From Alphaproteobacteria bacterium (GTDB lineage Bacteria; Pseudomonadota; Alphaproteobacteria; RF32; CAG-239): a stretch of DNA of 64,000 bases. Positions 794-43,520 of this stretch are shown here, piece by piece. A program made the position numbers and the translations under genes. The DNA lies in NCBI GenBank assembly GCA_900769705.1, contig CAAGHP010000020.1, forward strand, positions 94,974 through 158,973. Direction: 5' to 3'. Every line of letters begins with the position of its first letter. Positions within the stretch are counted from its first letter, which is position 1. The notes beneath the pieces were generated by a model that saw only the letters and a list, made by a program, of their open reading frames with translations, had not been told where the DNA came from and made no database searches.

Positions 794-2001
794 CAGTTCA
801 CCTTCGGAGAAGAATATTTAGGCGCCAGCAAATAATACTTGCCGGCAGAGTTCATCCGTCCGGCTTCTGCCAGGGCTTCTTCGCCGTGTCCCCAAAAATA
901 ATCGCCGCGCACCACACCTTTAATCGCACTGCCTATATCCTGAGCAAACACCACTTTTTCTATTTTTCCGTTATCCGGATTTACTGTATCCAGCCACAAC
1001 ATAGCTCCCAGCGGTATAAAACGATTGTCCACCGCCATACTGCGTCCGGCGGTTAAAGATAAACCATAAGCTCCGACCGGACCGTCGGCATCAACCACAC
1101 GCTGAAAAATAAACCTCTCGTTTTCCGCCATAACTTCTGCTGCTTTTTGTGGATTTTTACGCAGCCAATCACGGATTTTTGTCATAGACGCCTCACTTGG
1201 CTTAATCAGACCTTTTTGCAGTAAAATAGAGCCGATTCCCTTAAATTTGCGCCCATTGCTGTCGGCAAAACCGATTCTCAGTTCTGAACCGTCTTCCATA
1301 ATGGCAATCGCTGAACCTTGAATCTGCATAAAATGTATATCCACCAAATCATCGCCCCACATCAAAACCGGAGCTTTCACACCGTTTTGTTCAATTTGAC
1401 GGCGGTTATAGTATGGAATAAACTTACTGCCTTCCACTCTGCCGACTAAACGGGTATTCGGCAATGAACTGTCAAAATCTTTCAAATTTATTTCAATCAA
1501 ATCATTCGGCTTGCCATAAATCGGAAATCTGTATTTAGCGCTTTTTTCAAAAGAAGCATGAATTGTCGCCTCATAATAAGAAGTGAATTTACCTATTGTA
1601 TTGCCGTCAGCCGAAACTTCATACGGCGTAAACTCGCTCTCTAAAAACTTTTTCATCTGTGCAACGCTGTTTATTCCGGCATCAGCAAATTTTTTACAGG
1701 CTTTTTGATAATCAGTAGTTTTTATTTTTATAGCCGAATTGTATAAATAGGTATTTTTATTTTTCAAAACATTTTTGCAGTTTTTAGCAAACACCGGAAT
1801 AACCTCGCCGAAATCATCGCGATTCCATCCGGATAGTTGCGAAAAGCTTACCTTTTTTAACACAGCATTGCTTTCTTCTGCCGATGGAACGCCGGATTCC
1901 TCCCTAAAGCATCCGTTAAGCAGCAATACTAAAGCCAACGATAAAACAAAATTAAGCTGTTTTTTTAGTGGAAACCAGCACCCAATTATTGTTTTTTGCA
2001 T
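793..2001 (-). CDS. mltA: Membrane-bound lytic murein transglycosylase A (MltA-like lipoprotein)
   Basis: Signal peptide with lipobox LLNGC. C-terminal 3D-domain-like block ...GSAIKG.VRGDYFWGHGEEA...AG.MN..G.YYLL. The annotated start overlaps the upstream gene by 50 bp, so the true start is probably a downstream alternative codon. Confidence 0.7.
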   Translation of the reverse strand: MQKTIIGCWFPLKKQLNFVLSLALVLLLNGCFREESGVPSAEESNAVLKKVSFSQLSGWNRDDFGEVIPVFAKNCKNVLKNKNTYLYNSAIKIKTTDYQKACKKFADAGINSVAQMKKFLESEFTPYEVSADGNTIGKFTSYYEATIHASFEKSAKYRFPIYGKPNDLIEINLKDFDSSLPNTRLVGRVEGSKFIPYYNRRQIEQNGVKAPVLMWGDDLVDIHFMQIQGSAIAIMEDGSELRIGFADSNGRKFKGIGSILLQKGLIKPSEASMTKIRDWLRKNPQKAAEVMAENERFIFQRVVDADGPVGAYGLSLTAGRSMAVDNRFIPLGAMLWLDTVNPDNGKIEKVVFAQDIGSAIKGVVRGDYFWGHGEEALAEAGRMNSAGKYYLLAPKYSSPKVN

Positions 2002-3191: not shown

Positions 3192-3668
3192 ATGCGCTTA
3201 GCTTTATATCAGCCTGATATTCCGCAAAATACCGGAACTCTTTTACGATTGGGTGCCTGCCTTAATCTTGAGTTGGATATTATTGAACCTTGCGGATTCA
3301 TTTTTAATGAAAAAGCTATGCGCCGTGCCGGTATGGACTATTTAGACCTGGTACATTGCCGCCGCCATAACAGCTGGACTGATTTTATGGAATACCGTGC
3401 GCAGCATCCGGAAGAATACGGACGTTTGGTACTGATGACAACTCACAGCGCAGATTCGTTTTTAGATTTTGAGTTTAAGCCTAACGATATAATTTTAATG
3501 GGACGCGAAAGCGCCGGTGTGCCTGAAGAAATACACGAATTAGCAGACGCGCAGCTGCTGATTCCTATGTCGCCGCAAGCCCGTTCAATCAATATGGCTG
3601 TTTCTGCCGCCATGGCTTTAACTGAAGCGCTCAGACAAACAAGATTATTTCCAAAAATTAAAAAATAG
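3192..3668 (+). CDS. trmL: tRNA (cytidine/uridine34-2'-O)-methyltransferase TrmL (SpoU family)
   Basis: LYQPDIPQNTG...RAGMDYLD...LMGRESAGVPEE...IPM.P.ARSINM..AAM..TEALRQ. Start moved to the ATG at 3192, because the ORF-track start at 3102 overlaps secB. Confidence 0.7.
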   Translation: MRLALYQPDIPQNTGTLLRLGACLNLELDIIEPCGFIFNEKAMRRAGMDYLDLVHCRRHNSWTDFMEYRAQHPEEYGRLVLMTTHSADSFLDFEFKPNDIILMGRESAGVPEEIHELADAQLLIPMSPQARSINMAVSAAMALTEALRQTRLFPKIKK

Positions 3669-3765: not shown

Positions 3766-4278
3766 GTGAACATGAGTATTAAAAAATTACCATCACTAAC
3801 TTTTAACGCCGGCGAATATGTAGTTTATCCAACACATGGTGTGGGTAAAGTTGCTGACGTGACCAAACAAAATATTGCCGGTTCCGAGCTTGAGCTTCTG
3901 GTGGTAAATTTTGACAAGGATAAAATGACTCTGCGCATTCCGACTTCCAAAATTCAGCATGTAGGCCTGCGTAAAATCTCTGATGACAAAACAATGAACG
4001 AAGCTTTTGCAACCCTCAAAGGCAAAGCTAAAATCCGCAAAATTATGTGGTCTCGCCGCGCTCAGGAATATGAAAATAAAATCAATTCCGGTAATCCTGT
4101 AGCTATCGCCGAAGTCATTCGCGATTTATACCGCAATGAAAATATCGCCGAACAATCTTACAGCGAACGCCAAATCTATGAACAGGCTGTCAGCCGTCTG
4201 GCTAGTGAAGTTTCTGTTTATAGCAACTGTTCAATTGAAGAAGCTAACAAAAAATTACTGGATATCTTGTCCAAATAA
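3766..4278 (+). CDS. CarD/CdnL family transcriptional regulator
   Basis: F..GEYVVYPTHGVGKV ... RR.MWSRRAQEY..K..SG....AEVIRDL.R......SYSERQIYE.A is the RNAP-interacting CarD family pattern. Confidence 0.7.
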   Translation: MNMSIKKLPSLTFNAGEYVVYPTHGVGKVADVTKQNIAGSELELLVVNFDKDKMTLRIPTSKIQHVGLRKISDDKTMNEAFATLKGKAKIRKIMWSRRAQEYENKINSGNPVAIAEVIRDLYRNENIAEQSYSERQIYEQAVSRLASEVSVYSNCSIEEANKKLLDILSK

Positions 4279-4337: not shown

Positions 4338-4515
4338 GCGTAAAAATAAGCAATTATGTCCATATTTTTTTCCCGAAAAATGCAATATTTTGCTTGAAGT
4401 CTGACGTTTTGTGTTATACATTCTAGGCAAATTGAAGTTTTTTAATTTTAGTTATGGCTCGTTTGCGGGCTGTAACTTCGTTTTAACAAAATAGCTAATA
4501 GGAGCTTAAATAACC

Positions 4516-7194
4516 ATGAGTAAATGGGTATATACATTTGGAAATGGCAAAGCCGAAGGCGATGCCAACATGCGTAATCTCCTGGGCGGTAAAGGTGCTA
4601 ACTTGGCAGAAATGAACAAAGTTGGCTTGCCTGTTCCTCCTGGATTCACCGTTACAACAGACGTTTGCACATATTACTATGCAAACAACAACACATACCC
4701 TGCTGACTTGAAAGACCAAGTTAAAGCAGCTGTTGCCGGTGTTGAAGCCATTATGGGTAAAAAATTTGCTGATCCTGAAAATCCGCTTTTGTTCTCTGTT
4801 CGTTCCGGCGCCAGAATTTCTATGCCTGGTATGATGGACACCGTTTTGAACCTCGGTTTGAACGATGAAAGCGTTAAAGGTTTGGCTAAAGTTTCTGGCA
4901 ACGAAAGATTCGCTTATGACTCTTACCGCCGTTTTATCCAAATGTTCTCTGATGTAGTTTTGGGTGCAGACCTTGATGAATACGAAGGCGCTCTTGAAGC
5001 TATGAAAAAAGCCAAAGGTTACAAATCTGATACAGATATGACAACCGAAGACTTGAAAGAATTGGTAAACGAATATAAAGAAATTGGTAAAAAATTGGGC
5101 AAAGTTGTTCCACAAGATCCTTGGGAACAATTGTGGCTTGGTATTGGCGCCGTATTTGGTTCTTGGAACGCTGCCCGCGCTATCACTTATCGTAAATTGA
5201 ACAACATCCCTGGTGATTGGGGTACAGCTTGTAACGTTCAAACCATGGTATTCGGTAATGCCGGTAACGATTCTGCAACCGGTGTATGCTTCTCTCGTGA
5301 CCCTGCTACCGGTGAAAACAAATATTACGGTGAATACTTAATCAACGCTCAAGGTGAAGACGTTGTTGCTGGTATTCGTACTCCGCAGCCTATGGGTTCT
5401 GAAGGCAAAGGCAACTCTTTGGAAGAATTGTGGCCTGATTTGTACAAACAGCTTGTAGATGTTCGTAACGCTTTGGAAGCACACTACAAAGATATGCAAG
5501 ATATGGAATTTACCATTGAGCATAAAAAATTGTGGATGTTGCAATGCCGTAACGGTAAAAGAACTGCCGCTGCAGCTGTAAGAATGGCTGTTGAAATGGT
5601 TAACGAAGGTTTGTTGACCAAAGAAGAAGCTATTATGCGCGTTGGTGCTGACCAATTAGACCAATTGTTGCACCCAATGTTGGACCCTAAAGCCAACAAA
5701 AAAGTAATTGCTACCGGTTTGCCGGCATCTCCTGGTGCTGCTGTTGGCCGTGCCGTATTCTGCGCCGAAGATGCAGAAGCTTGGGCTGCAAAAGGTGAAA
5801 AAGTTATCCTTATCCGTAACGAAACTTCTCCTGAAGATATTGGCGGTATGCACGCTTCTCAAGGTGTGATTACTGCTCGCGGCGGTATGACTTCTCACGC
5901 TGCTGTGGTTGCTCGCGGTATGGGTACTCCTTGCGTATCCGGTTCTACAGACATCACCATCGACTACAAAACTAAAACAATGTCTACAAAATCAGGCGTT
6001 GTAATTAAAGAAGGCGACTGGGTATCTTTGGATGGTGCTAAAGGTCAAATTATTGAAGGTGAAATTCCGACTGTTAGCGCATCTATGACCGGTAACTTCG
6101 GTACATTTATGGGCTGGGTTGATGAAATCCGCACTATGAGTGTTCGCGCCAACGCCGAAACTCCTGCTGACGCTAAACAAGCTTTGGCATTTGGTGCCGA
6201 AGGTATTGGTTTGGCTCGTACCGAACACATGTTCTTTGACACTAAAAGAATTTCTGATATGCGCACAATGATTTTGTCTGATGACGAAGCCGGCCGCCGT
6301 GCTGCTTTGGCTAAATTGTTGCCATACCAAAAAGAAGACTTCAAAGAATTGTACAGAACCATGAACGGTTTCCCTGTAGTTATTCGTTTGTTGGACCCAC
6401 CGCTCCATGAATTTTTGCCTCACACAGATGCAGAAATGCAGGAATTGGCTGATAAAATGGGCAAAACTTTAGCCGAAGTTAAAAACCGCGCTAACTCTTT
6501 GCACGAAATGAACCCTATGTTGGGTCACCGCGGCTGCCGTTTGCCGATTACCTATCCGGAAATCTGCGAAATGCAAACCCGCGCTATCTTGGAAGCTGCT
6601 TTGGAATGCCGCGATGAAGGCGTTAAAGTTACACCAGAAATCGAAGTTCCATTGGTTGGTTCTAAGAAAGAATTGGATATTGTTAAAAACATAATTGATA
6701 CAACTGCTAAAGCTTTGTTTGCTGAAAAAGGCAAATCTATTGAATATGAAGTTGGTACCATGATTGAATTGCCAAGAGCCGCTTTGATGGCTGAAGAAAT
6801 CGCTGCTTCTGCTGCATTCTTTGGTTTTGGTACAAACGACTTGACTCAAACAACTTTGGGTATGAGCCGTGATGATACCGGTGCTATCTTGGATTGCTAC
6901 CGCGCTAAAGGCATTTATGTTGCAGATCCGTTTGCTTCTATTGATGTTGAAGGTGTTGGTAAATTGGTTAAACGCGCTTGCGAATACGGCCGTCAAACTA
7001 ACCCGGATTTGTTGTTGGGTGTTTGCGGTGAACATGGTGGTGACCCTAAATCTATCGAGTTCTTCCAACAGTGTGGTTTAGACTATGTGTCTTGCTCACC
7101 GTTCCGTGTACCGGTAGCTCGTTTGGCTGCTGCTCAAGCTGCTATCAAATACGGTAAAACTCAAAAAGACCACGCAGAAAAGAAAGCTGCTTAA
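4516..7194 (+). CDS. ppdK: Pyruvate, phosphate dikinase
   Basis: 892 aa. PEP-utilising enzyme motifs (GGMTSHAAVVARGMG, catalytic His region) and the characteristic N-terminal ATP-grasp region MSKWVY.FG.G.AEG...MRNLLGGKGANLAEM. Confidence 0.95.
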   Translation: MSKWVYTFGNGKAEGDANMRNLLGGKGANLAEMNKVGLPVPPGFTVTTDVCTYYYANNNTYPADLKDQVKAAVAGVEAIMGKKFADPENPLLFSVRSGARISMPGMMDTVLNLGLNDESVKGLAKVSGNERFAYDSYRRFIQMFSDVVLGADLDEYEGALEAMKKAKGYKSDTDMTTEDLKELVNEYKEIGKKLGKVVPQDPWEQLWLGIGAVFGSWNAARAITYRKLNNIPGDWGTACNVQTMVFGNAGNDSATGVCFSRDPATGENKYYGEYLINAQGEDVVAGIRTPQPMGSEGKGNSLEELWPDLYKQLVDVRNALEAHYKDMQDMEFTIEHKKLWMLQCRNGKRTAAAAVRMAVEMVNEGLLTKEEAIMRVGADQLDQLLHPMLDPKANKKVIATGLPASPGAAVGRAVFCAEDAEAWAAKGEKVILIRNETSPEDIGGMHASQGVITARGGMTSHAAVVARGMGTPCVSGSTDITIDYKTKTMSTKSGVVIKEGDWVSLDGAKGQIIEGEIPTVSASMTGNFGTFMGWVDEIRTMSVRANAETPADAKQALAFGAEGIGLARTEHMFFDTKRISDMRTMILSDDEAGRRAALAKLLPYQKEDFKELYRTMNGFPVVIRLLDPPLHEFLPHTDAEMQELADKMGKTLAEVKNRANSLHEMNPMLGHRGCRLPITYPEICEMQTRAILEAALECRDEGVKVTPEIEVPLVGSKKELDIVKNIIDTTAKALFAEKGKSIEYEVGTMIELPRAALMAEEIAASAAFFGFGTNDLTQTTLGMSRDDTGAILDCYRAKGIYVADPFASIDVEGVGKLVKRACEYGRQTNPDLLLGVCGEHGGDPKSIEFFQQCGLDYVSCSPFRVPVARLAAAQAAIKYGKTQKDHAEKKAA

Positions 7195-41193: not shown

Positions 41194-41200
41194 ATACAAA

Positions 41201-41232
41201 CAGCAGGCAGTAAAAAGCCTGCTTTTTCTTTT
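41201..41232 (+). terminator. Terminator after tRNA-Glu
   Basis: cagcaggcagtaaaaagcctgct plus ttttctttt. Confidence 0.55.
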
Positions 41233-41869
41233 ATTTTCAAGTACTTATGCGATTTCGGATGTTGTATTTTCAAAAACTGCGATTTTGGAAAATTTTACGA
41301 ACTCGTTTATGCAAAAGTCTTTATTTTTCAATGTCTTGAGCGAGCTGGAATCTCGTTAGGTCTTTGGGATACTTTTTTATCATCAATCAGATTAGAAACC
41401 AGCCTAAAGGAAAAGTTTTTGACATTGACGACAAGTTATTCTTTATATTCTATCGCGTTATAGTTCGGAAAACGCGAGGTAAGCATCATCAATACACAAA
41501 AGCTCTATTATAAAGGCAGTTTTTTTATATATTATTAGATAATAAAATAATAAAAATCCCTTGTAAAAACAAGGGATTAAGAAATGGTGCGCGATACTAT
41601 GCGCGTATCGGACTAAAGAGTATGGGGATTTTAAGCGATTAGCAAATAAAATTGAACTTCTTATGGAAAGTCTTTCAATGCTACGGTCTTATCTTTAACA
41701 TTCTTGCGGATAAAGGCTTTAAGGCAGAGAATATCAATGTTTCGCCGAAACAATATTATAAAATATCTTATTTCCATTGTGGTTCTTGTGAAGTTATTTC
41801 TTTACTTTTTCCTCAATTTCATTTAGTCTGAACTCAAAATTAAGCGGCTGATTTAATAAGGAGTATGCA

Positions 41870-42499
41870 ATGCGGAAATTGTTTTTAATTCTAAGTGTTT
41901 GCTTGACTTTGGTGGGATGCGCGTTTCCGCAAACGCCGAATGAGAGCGATCTGTTGCGTGCCAGCCGTCAGTTTCGTCCCGCATTGTTTAACAGCGGCGC
42001 CCGCGGAGTGGTCATTACCTCTTTATCGGACAATGTGTCCGATGATGGGTTCTTTGGCGCCAATTATAACGATATTGTCGCTTTCAAAAATATAAAAACA
42101 AATGAAGTTTTTTATATGAGTACCATCTTGGACGGCAACAAATATGATACGGCGATGCTGCCGATAGGGGTATACGAGGTAACCAACCTTTATTTGCAAT
42201 ATATCTATACAACGACCGAACAGTATGGCAATACCCAAGTCGTCCGCACGGTGGTAGAAACAGATGAACATTATGAGGGCAACAGCAAAATCAGATTTAC
42301 GGTGCGCCCGCAGGAAGTGACCTATATCGGACATTTTGCATTGACAAAAACGGATAATGAGGTTTCAGCAGACGGACATATTAAGGCGAATTCTTTCAGC
42401 ATAACGGACAAATCTGATGAAATTTCAGATAAGCAGAAAATGGATTGGCAAAAAGAATTCGGCCAAAATTTTGTTGTCAGATTGGCAAAAGTTCAATAG
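41870..42499 (+). CDS. Hypothetical lipoprotein
   Basis: Signal peptide with lipobox LVGC. No family recognised. Confidence 0.5.
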   Translation: MRKLFLILSVCLTLVGCAFPQTPNESDLLRASRQFRPALFNSGARGVVITSLSDNVSDDGFFGANYNDIVAFKNIKTNEVFYMSTILDGNKYDTAMLPIGVYEVTNLYLQYIYTTTEQYGNTQVVRTVVETDEHYEGNSKIRFTVRPQEVTYIGHFALTKTDNEVSADGHIKANSFSITDKSDEISDKQKMDWQKEFGQNFVVRLAKVQ

Positions 42500-42509
42500 G
42501 AGAGCGCAG

Positions 42510-42878
42510 ATGAAAAAAGTCTTATTAGTAATTGCGATGATTGTTCTGACATCTTGCAGCACCACTATCGGAAATGAAAAATTGGCAGACAGCCGCATCA
42601 GTATAGAAAACCAAATGGTCGGCGTTTCTTCTAAAACAGACGCAAGAGAAAAATTCGGAACGCCGAATCTTGTGTTTCAGAAAAACAATTTGGAATATTA
42701 TGAATATCGAAAAATATATGGTGCCGGAAGATACCATTGGTTGATACCGCTCATTGGCTGGGTTATGTCATGGTTCCAAGATAATTATACTTTTGAGGAA
42801 ACAAATCTGTTTATAGGATTTGATAAATCTGGCAAAGTCGTTGATTATGATATTATCCAATCCGGCGGCACAATGTAA
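42510..42878 (+). CDS. Small lipoprotein, possibly BamE (SmpA/OmlA)-like
   Basis: Lipobox LTSC after MKKVLLVIAMIV. The pattern ...GVSSKTDAREKFGTPN...TNLFIGFDKSGKVVDY resembles BamE family beta-strands. Start moved to 42510 (SD ggagag). Confidence 0.4.
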   Translation: MKKVLLVIAMIVLTSCSTTIGNEKLADSRISIENQMVGVSSKTDAREKFGTPNLVFQKNNLEYYEYRKIYGAGRYHWLIPLIGWVMSWFQDNYTFEETNLFIGFDKSGKVVDYDIIQSGGTM

Positions 42879-43071
42879 AAGCCCAACAGAACGGTAAATA
42901 GAAATTTCAACATTGGAGCTTTAATTTATCAGACTGCTTGATTTTATTGGCTTTTGCTTAAAAAGTCCGATAGAAAATGAAAAAATGGTATTTTAGGGAA
43001 CGGAATTATCGGACTTTACGAGAGTCCGTTATACTAACAAAAAAAGCACCTCAAAAGGTGCTTATCATAAA

Positions 43072-43146
43072 TGGTGCCATTAGCAAGAATCGGACTTGCG
43101 ACCCCGTCATTACCAATGACGTGCTCTACCACTGAGCTATAATGGC
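43072..43146 (-). tRNA. tRNA-Thr (anticodon GGT)
   Basis: The minus strand reads GCCATTATAGCTCAGTGGTAGAGCACGTCATTGGTAATGACGGGGTCGCAAGTCCGATTCTTGCTAATGGCACCA. Perfect 7-bp acceptor. Anticodon loop ttGGTaa. Confidence 0.85.
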
Positions 43147-43305
43147 GTGACTATACTAAAACATAATACTTAACAGATGACGGGGTCTGCTCCCCCGCTT
43201 GTCGGTCTAGGCTCGCCGCGGTCGTTTACACTTTCCTTGCTTGCCAAGCCCTTCCAAGGCGTTACAGACAAAAATAACAAAAAATTGTTATTTTTGCTTA
43301 GCCGC

Positions 43306-43341
43306 TACCAATGACGTGCTCTACCACTGAGCTATAATGGC
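43306..43341 (-). repeat. 36-nt direct repeat identical to positions 1-36 (5' end through the anticodon) of the adjacent tRNA-Thr. Partial tRNA duplication, possible attachment-site scar.
   Basis: Exact match to 43111-43146. The sequence diverges immediately after the anticodon. Confidence 0.8.
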
Positions 43342-43520
43342 AACGGTAAAAACTCATTAACTGTAATATCTCAGCAACAAATTTCATATAACAACATACA
43401 GATATGATTTTAAAAATCAATGTATTTTTTTATAAAAGTGCAAAATTTATGCAAAATTTTTACCATTTACCGAATATAGTAACCGATGATTATTGTAAAA
43501 ATAAAGAGTTAGAGGGAAAA

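Follow-up and report, generated by a model that had tools for sequence, protein, structure and literature searches.

In Escherichia coli, the tandem repeats at the tyrT locus vary in copy number through unequal recombination. E. coli K-12 carries tyrT, tyrV and rttR together with three 178-bp repeats, the last of which overlaps the 3' end of tyrV, and these encode the small RNA RttR (rtT; RF00391). Here we describe a locus of similar design in a 64,000-nucleotide (nt) stretch of DNA from an Alphaproteobacteria bacterium (assembly GCA_900769705.1, contig CAAGHP010000020.1, positions 94,974 to 158,973; the whole stretch is called the window, and its positions are used throughout). A tRNA-Thr(GGT) gene on the minus strand is preceded by a 195-nt unit made of a 36-nt copy of the tRNA 5' half and a 159-nt spacer, the two joined at the anticodon loop, and the spacer contains a structured RNA module that we call X. 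We found that, among related strains and species, the leader of the tRNA-Thr(GGU) transcription unit carries zero, one or apparently two of these 195-nt units, and X is probably a small RNA embedded in that leader, co-transcribed with the tRNA and released by ribonuclease P (RNase P).

As at tyrT, units of ~180-200 nt stand in tandem beside a tRNA gene and each contains a fragment of that tRNA; here the units measure 195-196 nt, and copy numbers of zero and one are firm while that of two comes from two short-read assemblies. The E. coli repeats lie 3' of their tRNA and hold its last ~19 nt, whereas the units described here lie 5', hold positions 1-37 and are joined within the anticodon loop. 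RttR is processed from the tRNA transcript in E. coli, and X would be released in a comparable way, as judged from the sequence. The RNAs themselves share no sequence or Rfam similarity, and RttR contains a small open reading frame (ORF; tpr), whereas X has no conserved ORF. The tyrT-tyrV-rttR region is the closest analogue, with the present locus its mirror image built around an unrelated RNA.

Resemblances extend to three further systems. Like islands and cis-mobilisable elements (CIMEs) that target tRNA genes, the locus has tRNA-fragment repeats around an insert, a regenerated tRNA, and occupied and empty alleles; unlike them, it has no integrase, its 159-nt insert is structured and non-coding, the 5' half of the tRNA is the part duplicated, and it is inherited vertically across species. 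Group I introns sit in bacterial tRNA anticodon loops (cyanobacterial tRNA-Leu, Azoarcus tRNA-Ile, Agrobacterium tRNA-Arg), and Alphaproteobacteria are known hosts of them. X resembles these introns as a GC-rich structured RNA with GNRA loops that begins in the anticodon loop after U, and differs in that a second 5' half follows rather than a 3' exon and that its 108 nt contain no P3-P9 core. Engineered tRNA scaffolds for RNA expression carry a foreign structured RNA in the tRNA anticodon region (Ponchon and Dardel; PMC3753655). In both cases a structured RNA stands at the anticodon region, and here too its expression and processing would depend on tRNA signals, but the 3' half survives here as a decayed trace at best, leaving just the 5' half intact, and a complete scaffold cannot form. 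Our literature searches found no description of such an arrangement of tRNA half and structured RNA. The locus would represent a second natural case, mirroring tyrT/RttR, of a small RNA in tRNA-fragment repeats, with a join that resembles a tRNA scaffold or intron site.

A tRNA-Thr half copy and a structured spacer form a 195-nt unit

The initial annotation of the window described a complete tRNA-Thr with an exact 36-nt copy of its 5' half 159 nt away, and ARAGORN, the Rfam tRNA model and a repeat search all agree with that description. The repeat search returned a single exact 36-nt direct repeat (family D3; 43111-43146 and 43306-43341, 195-nt spacing), for which we estimate a chance expectation of ~1e-13 in 64 kb. 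The upstream half copy comprises linear tRNA positions 1-36, which correspond to canonical positions 1-37 (ending with the anticodon GGT and A37) because the D-loop of this tRNA-Thr is one base short. Past A37 the two sequences part, with G in the half copy and A in the tRNA. The spacer (43147-43305) runs from an A/U-only hairpin through a GC-rich centre to an AU-rich end. The GC-rich stretch and the CGGGG...CCCCG hairpin that had been annotated there are both present, although the GC-richness belongs to the centre and is not uniform, given a 28-nt A/U hairpin (43269-43296) and a 34-nt AU-rich linker (43147-43180). The features of the locus, in the direction of the tRNA, are these.

43393-43420, minus strand: putative promoter, TTGATT (43415-43420), 16 nt, TATGTT (43393-43398), at a conserved position
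43343-43373, minus strand: 31-nt leader segment, missing in some strains (strain alignment)
43306-43341, minus strand: E1(up), exact copy of tRNA positions 1-36 (canonical 1-37; repeat D3, 10-contig alignment)
43197-43305, minus strand: X core, structured RNA module of ~108 nt that begins directly after A37 of the half copy (covariance model R1, 121 bits)
43269-43296, minus strand: H1, a 12-bp A/U hairpin of 28 nt, pure A/U (CAAAAAUAACAA/UUGUUAUUUUUG; folds, alignment)
43198-43258, minus strand: H2a/H2b/H3, a long irregular hairpin; internal loops conserved and rich in purines, GUAA tetraloop at 43226-43229 (single-sequence folds)
43181-43197, minus strand: H4, GC hairpin CGGGG-loop-CCCCG (folds, alignment)
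43177-43187, minus strand: GACCCCGUCAU, exact reverse complement of tRNA positions 37-47 (AUGACGGGGUC), overlapping the 3' arm of H4 (read from the sequence)
43147-43180, minus strand: AU-rich linker of 34 nt to the tRNA 5' end, which together with H4 may be a decayed tRNA 3' half (E2*)
43072-43146, minus strand: intact tRNA-Thr(GGT) with encoded CCA (ARAGORN; Rfam tRNA model, 70.3 bits at 43075-43146)
43044-43063, minus strand: intrinsic terminator 3' of tRNA-Thr, an 8-bp stem followed by a T run (terminator scan)

X is a candidate new RNA family

We aligned 15 non-redundant units (alignment A1), derived a structure with RNAalifold and refined it by hand. In A1, 92.8% of cells were paired, compared to 38-52% when the 3' partners were slid; eight pairs changed on both sides, and none of 500 shuffles reached the covariation score. 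A second alignment fitted to the model (A3) had 99.6% of cells paired and 9 of 18 pairs compensatory, with 0/500 shuffles scoring as high; because A3 leans towards the model, the slid-partner control is the fairer comparison. Single-sequence folds performed independently converged on one architecture in both clades.

The helices change in sequence while keeping their pairing. H1 measures 10-12 bp across lineages, 6 of the 12 pairs seen in the window are compensatory in the wider set, and in L033 (related contigs are cited by L number) a wholly different H1 sequence retains its pairing. H2 is fully compensatory relative to the window in L126 (H2a CUUGGG/CCCAAG and H2b CAUCU/AGAUG, as also in L128) and in L033 (H2a CUUCGG/CCGAAG). 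The apical pair of the long hairpin is U-A, C-G or G-C, and its loop is a GNRA tetraloop (GUAA, GUGA or GCAA) in the window clade and most relatives and U-rich (UUU) or otherwise in some. The H4 stem is invariant, with a loop of 5-9 nt between species. GNRA loops of these three kinds are confined to the tRNA-sense strand, indicating that this is the functional strand.

A covariance model built on the first ~108 nt of the spacer (R1) matched the window once, at 43197-43305 (121 bits), and scored the L033 copy at 72 bits; homologues of X are found in L019, L033, L104-L118 and L126-L128. Rfam 15, searched at gathering thresholds and at E<=10, gave only chance-level matches apart from the tRNA for the window locus and L126, and likewise only the tRNA and chance-level matches for L116. 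In L127 the best match at E<=1 was the integron-cassette small RNA sRNA-Xcc1, a weak resemblance below threshold (24.6 bits, E=0.16, versus a gathering score of 53). With compensatory structure in at least eight lineages and no matching Rfam family, these data support a suggestion in the initial annotation that an unrecognised small structured RNA might be joined to the tRNA half, and we regard X as a candidate new RNA family outside Rfam. Comparative support for this candidate is good, and it comes from uncultured Alphaproteobacteria of gut and rumen, for which we know of no characterised non-coding RNA.

Several other identities were considered for the spacer and rejected. A coding role was set aside since the spacer ORFs are short and broken by 1-2-nt indels between strains. 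The possibility that the 16-17 nt ahead of X act as an OMEGA-like guide was dropped because precisely these bases are gone from L033 and the neighbourhood contains no IscB/TnpB-like gene. Likenesses seen by eye to signal recognition particle RNA, 6S RNA, tmRNA, RNase P RNA, hepatitis delta virus-like ribozymes and hammerhead ribozymes had no Rfam support, and the strand order of their motifs was wrong.

The unit is old, vertically inherited and repeatedly lost

Relatives were located through DusB, which led to metagenome-assembled genomes (MAGs) of uncultured gut and rumen Alphaproteobacteria, and deeper relatives through graded homologues of the neighbouring 702-amino-acid (aa) protein and then the contigs encoding those homologues. 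The best DusB match is filed under '[Ruminococcus] gnavus', evidently through an error of binning. The comparison of occupied and empty sites that the initial annotation had proposed showed such a polymorphism within the species: of 10 contigs with identical DusB, five were occupied as in the window and five were empty. The two alleles differ by exactly 195 nt, and the intact tRNA of the empty allele stands at the position of the upstream half. The same split occurs in a clade whose neighbour protein is 93% identical, where several contigs stop inside the half copy, as would be expected if the repeat made the assembly graph branch. Six further contigs with DusB ~71-74% identical to that of the window carry one unit each (L019, L104, L105, L107, L108 and L118), and L033 (DusB 59% identical) is also occupied, with its half copy reduced to 20 nt. 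Conservation of the unit at this locus thus extends across a clade of gut and rumen Alphaproteobacteria at the rank of family or order. It is missing in L018, L114, L116, L120-125, L132, L022 and L025, and only a GTCATTGGTAGC-like remnant is left in L020 and L027, 13-28 nt ahead of the tRNA. An apparent two-unit tandem array is present in L111 (period 196) and in L117. The occurrence of zero, one and apparently two copies among co-occurring strains provides a natural series for studying both the function of the RNA and the evolution of repeats at tRNA genes.

Pairwise identity of X closely followed that of DusB (Spearman 0.89, 36 pairs), and this tracking of host divergence indicates that the unit is old, vertically inherited and repeatedly lost, with no recent insertion. 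L019, L105, L107 and L108 share a variant upstream half, GCUUUAGUWUAGAGC, that keeps the D-stem through a U-G pair and lacks the D-loop GG. In these four lineages the upstream half is ~3 times better conserved than X (0-2 differences per 36 nt versus 10-19% in X), and gene conversion has there clearly been long inactive, which suggests that the half belongs to the functional RNA. In the L111 array this diverged variant forms the first half copy and the middle copy is exact, the pattern predicted by unequal crossing-over between a variant half and the tRNA.

Three observations on individual strains stand beside this distribution. The 31-nt leader indel (43343-43373) assorts independently of the unit, both being absent from L001 and L008 and the unit alone being present in L011; in these three contigs the deletion is bounded by GTTGC microhomology. 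In L104 the upstream half (~1089-1124, minus strand; GCCATTATAGCGCAG...) matches the tRNA of the window clade and not L104's own tRNA (GCCGTTGTAGCTCAG...), and its promoter and leader likewise differ, suggesting recombinational replacement with a breakpoint in or near the half copy. L018 (CAVEOB010000028.1) is filed as '[Ruminococcus] gnavus', but it shows the alphaproteobacterial synteny of tRNA-Thr, 702-aa gene and dusB, with DusB 89% identical, and is likely a contaminated bin.

The distribution also bears on the idea that the locus is, or was, a cis-mobilisable mini-element with the tRNA-Thr anticodon loop as its target and the 5' half within its attP, gained, lost and stacked in tandem through a tyrosine or serine recombinase whose gene lies elsewhere. 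The tRNA-fragment direct repeats that stop in the anticodon loop, a regenerated functional tRNA, an exact occupied/empty polymorphism and apparent tandem stacking all agree with such an element, and at tRNA-Thr in relatives a second small insert (Y, described below) lies between 13-15-nt repeats of the tRNA 3' end. In addition, the DNA 3' of the tRNA forms a hypervariable island, which in L117 and L118 holds a large serine recombinase. Against this, the 159-nt insert of the window has no conserved ORF and its neighbours are housekeeping genes, no recombinase adjoins the unit at any of ~40 related loci, and nothing longer than the unit or units ever lies between the repeats. It is the 5' half that is duplicated, whereas integrases normally regenerate the 3' part of a tRNA. 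Homologous content in all occupied species takes the place of a patchy distribution with variable cargo, and X co-diverges with its host while the upstream half has decayed in place in several species, which points to long residence rather than turnover. Scans of viral contigs with the H4 core, the E1/X junction and the H3 core yielded 0 matches each, and a 195-bp circle is a poor substrate for recombination. We consider the mini-element improbable. The initial annotation had offered, as one of two readings, an att-site scar of an integrated or excised island and had itself proposed that conservation of the arrangement in distant relatives would speak against this; the tRNA and partial copy are kept there (DusB 59-90% identical) with homologous content, between repeats that enclose at most one or two 195-nt units. 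Nor does the 702-aa coiled-coil protein, then put forward as possible cargo, fit that role, because the gene is present with and without the unit and is syntenic with dusB-trkA-typA in empty and occupied genomes alike. Of that first interpretation, the structured RNA and the occupied and empty alleles are retained, and the island scar and its cargo are not. The locus also offers a caution for island-finding pipelines: occupied and empty alleles at a repeated tRNA half do not necessarily mark an integrative element.

X also occurs away from tRNA genes

A blastn search of the phage collection found X in two scaffolds from human faeces filed as 'UNVERIFIED Bacteriophage sp.' (L126, MT838567.1, and L127, MT835910.1). 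L126 contains two copies (1644-1755 and 3463-3574, plus strand), and its longer counterpart L128 contains three, ~1.8-2.0 kb apart (20-131, 2072-2183 and 3891-4002, minus strand). L128 is a chromosomal contig of an Alphaproteobacteria MAG, with MacAB-TolC-type efflux genes and dxs. Its X copies are intergenic, between repeated modules encoding VgrG3-like_C lysozyme proteins and small secreted proteins, and one copy in L126/L128 lies 5' of the gene for a 148-aa secreted protein on the same strand. In these L126 and L128 copies X continues into another ~85 nt that are also structured. The end of the L127 contig (89-811) consists of three highly structured units of ~255 nt in tandem, and X is present in the second only, so that it looks like an insertion in that contig. 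No terminal inverted repeats or target-site duplications were seen at this insertion, and no tRNA or tRNA fragment adjoins X in any of the L126, L127 and L128 copies.

These copies bring up the possibility that X acts at the DNA level, as a non-autonomous transposon similar to miniature inverted-repeat transposable elements (MITEs) or palindrome-associated transposable elements (PATEs), or as a recombination site whose hairpins function as single-stranded DNA. X does have two palindromic segments that can form hairpins, and copies stand in three unrelated contexts, always within tandemly repeated modules. Set against this, the L127 insertion lacks the terminal repeats and target duplications of such elements, X occurs once in the 64-kb window and at one locus per related contig, and a single copy was present at each alphaproteobacterial locus examined. 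GNRA loops occur on one strand only, and the arms covary instead of being conserved, which would be unexpected for transposase binding sites. We therefore hold a DNA-level element to be very improbable. Alternatively, X could belong to a new kind of structured RNA element, small and intron-like or mobile, with no relation to group I or group II introns, that uses tRNA halves as a scaffold for expression and processing, resides at the anticodon-loop 37/38 position or free-standing, and includes tandem gain and loss in its life cycle; this, too, seems to us an unlikely description.

Plasmid searches returned tRNA-like fragments only. A 20-mer scan of metagenomes found, beyond this locus, L012, L014 and L017, which share only ~21 nt of H4, and this was judged a chance match. 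In these environmental contigs (L012 ~4400-4640, L014 ~520-765, L017 1-50), the H4-like 21-nt string forms the 3' arm of a long inverted repeat enclosing a GC-rich structure of ~190 nt without an Rfam match, probably unrelated to the tRNA-Thr locus.

The segment between X and the tRNA may derive from a tRNA 3' half

In an ungapped comparison, H4 with ~20 further nt matched the tRNA 3' half at 20 of 35 positions and at the expected offset in three related rumen-clade lineages (p ~0.003-0.006); the match was not significant in the window clade. H4 and the linker are thus possibly the decayed 3' half of a former upstream tRNA-Thr copy that X split at 37/38. This would suit a reading in which X, as an intron-like or mobile insertion that perhaps goes back to a group I intron, interrupted a tRNA-Thr copy at 37/38 (or 36/37); the unit would now be a functionless pseudogene, maintained through linkage alone and removed by deletion. 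Several features are compatible with such a relic: X begins in the anticodon loop after U36-A37, UUGGU/GCUAA could form a P1-like pairing with a U-G wobble, a possible decayed 3' half lies downstream of X, X is present at unrelated sites and looks like an insertion in one of three L127 units, and the unit is often lost. Yet compensatory changes and GNRA loops have been kept after the duplication, X is far better conserved than the adjoining leader, and support for a decayed 3' half is modest and absent from the window clade. As to a group I origin, neither the window locus nor the longer L126 copy matched Rfam Intron_gpI, or any group II model, at E<=10, and 108 nt is too short for a group I core. 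The exon layout also departs from that of an intron: X is followed by H4, the linker and a second 5' half, U36/A37 precedes the real 3' half, and no terminal G stands beside a 3' exon. An interrupted-tRNA relic is in our estimation quite improbable.

The same segment contains the 11-nt complement of the tRNA at 43177-43187, whose CCCGTCAT core is invariant in A1 and which pairs with tRNA positions 37-47 when unit and tRNA are folded together by minimum free energy (MFE). Such pairing could be regulatory or the mere trace of descent from a tRNA. Whole-length duplex energy between spacer and tRNA was no better than that of shuffled sequence. A cis-acting leader would make use of the pairing: GACCCCGUCAU(UA) would pair with the 3' anticodon-stem strand and variable loop of the tRNA and block both cloverleaf folding and RNase P cleavage unless sequestered in H4, with X as sensor or platform. 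The complementarity of 11-14 nt is invariant, MFE folds pair the segments in all eight lineages tested, and the unit always lies directly upstream of the tRNA in the same orientation. X is also found without a tRNA, however, MFE predictions for tRNAs are unreliable, the complementarity may just reflect descent of H4 from tRNA sequence, the data point to no ligand or factor, and unit-free strains coexist with unit-bearing ones. We find cis regulation of this kind unlikely.

A leader-embedded small RNA is the favoured explanation

The sequence TTGATT-16-TATGTT upstream of the half copy, conserved in position at nearly all related loci and below the threshold of a consensus scanner, is putatively the sole plausible promoter of the tRNA-Thr unit. 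On the tRNA strand, no sigma-70-type promoter or terminator was predicted within the spacer, and the only terminator follows the tRNA. Strong consensus promoter matches were found on the opposite strand only, inside the tRNA-half copies: antisense to each tRNA 5' half, at 43116-43143 and 43311-43338 (plus strand), 10 of 12 positions agree with the sigma-70 consensus (ATGACG-16-TATAAT). The promoter-like match in the upstream copy faces the 702-aa gene, and the other would give an antisense transcript across X.

We favour the explanation that X is a small RNA, acting in trans or binding a protein, whose expression and processing rely on the tRNA gene. One transcript from the conserved tRNA promoter would run through leader, E1, X, H4, linker and tRNA. 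RNase P cleaves at tRNA 5' ends, and its cut here would free a stable RNA of ~240 nt containing X. Copy number would shift through unequal recombination of the RecA type, or through slippage, involving the direct repeats of 36 nt or 195 nt, with no dedicated recombinase.

Some points weigh against this explanation. Co-transcription, RNase P release and stability of the RNA are predictions from the locus layout, and the unit is dispensable, being absent from many strains and from entire lineages. Both two-copy arrays are found in short-read assemblies, that of L117 with an N gap, and could be assembly errors. The comparative support for X derives from ~8 independent lineages, one of its two alignments (A3) is model-fitted, and the H2 region is aligned inconsistently between clades. 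An anticodon-loop junction that regenerates a complete tRNA is also an outcome of site-specific integration, and the 3'-side insert Y in relatives may mean that recombinases act at the tRNA-Thr gene.

Genomic setting and neighbouring features

On its 3' side, tRNA-Thr is preceded in gene order by a class II aminoacyl-tRNA synthetase, a YibQ-type deacetylase, tRNA-Glu and two small hypothetical genes; beyond it come the gene for the 702-aa coiled-coil protein, dusB, trkA, typA, mnmE and gidA, a housekeeping context. Consistent with what the initial annotation had observed, no integrase-like gene was present among the neighbours scanned with Pfam.

In L116 (883-1077, minus strand) and L132 (1198-1358, minus strand), a second GC-rich, GNRA-containing, non-coding insert of ~160-195 nt, Y, lies on the 3' side of tRNA-Thr. 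It follows the first terminator, with the tRNA 3' end (TTCAGCGGCACCA) repeated directly over 13-15 nt on its two sides, and is succeeded by a second terminator. Y is conserved between L116 and L132, has no Rfam match and is not in the window, and its start also occurs in L105. The layout of Y is closer still to tyrT/rtT than is that of the X unit.

The region between the convergent tRNA-Glu and tRNA-Thr genes (41194-43071) is hypervariable across strains (also L001, L003, L004, L099-L101 and L117-L125). Its contents include differing terminators, MarR with a metallo-beta-lactamase-fold protein, a DNA methylase, an N6-methyltransferase, an endonuclease/exonuclease/phosphatase-family protein (Pfam Exo_endo_phos, weak) and the large serine recombinase of L117 and L118, and the region has the look of a hotspot for integration or defence 3' of tRNA-Thr. 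Just 3' of the tRNA-Thr terminator, at the edge of this region, an inverted repeat, AAAGTCCGATAAT...ATTATCGGACTTT (42963-43016, and also 43010-43028), is found in nearly all related loci and may be a recombination or protein-binding site. Elsewhere in the window, a 16-bp palindrome, TGTTTCACGTGAAACA, occurs four times, one of them degenerate, at intergenic-looking positions (26336-26352, 52871-52887, 55701-55717 and 56947-56963) and is probably a transcription-factor operator.

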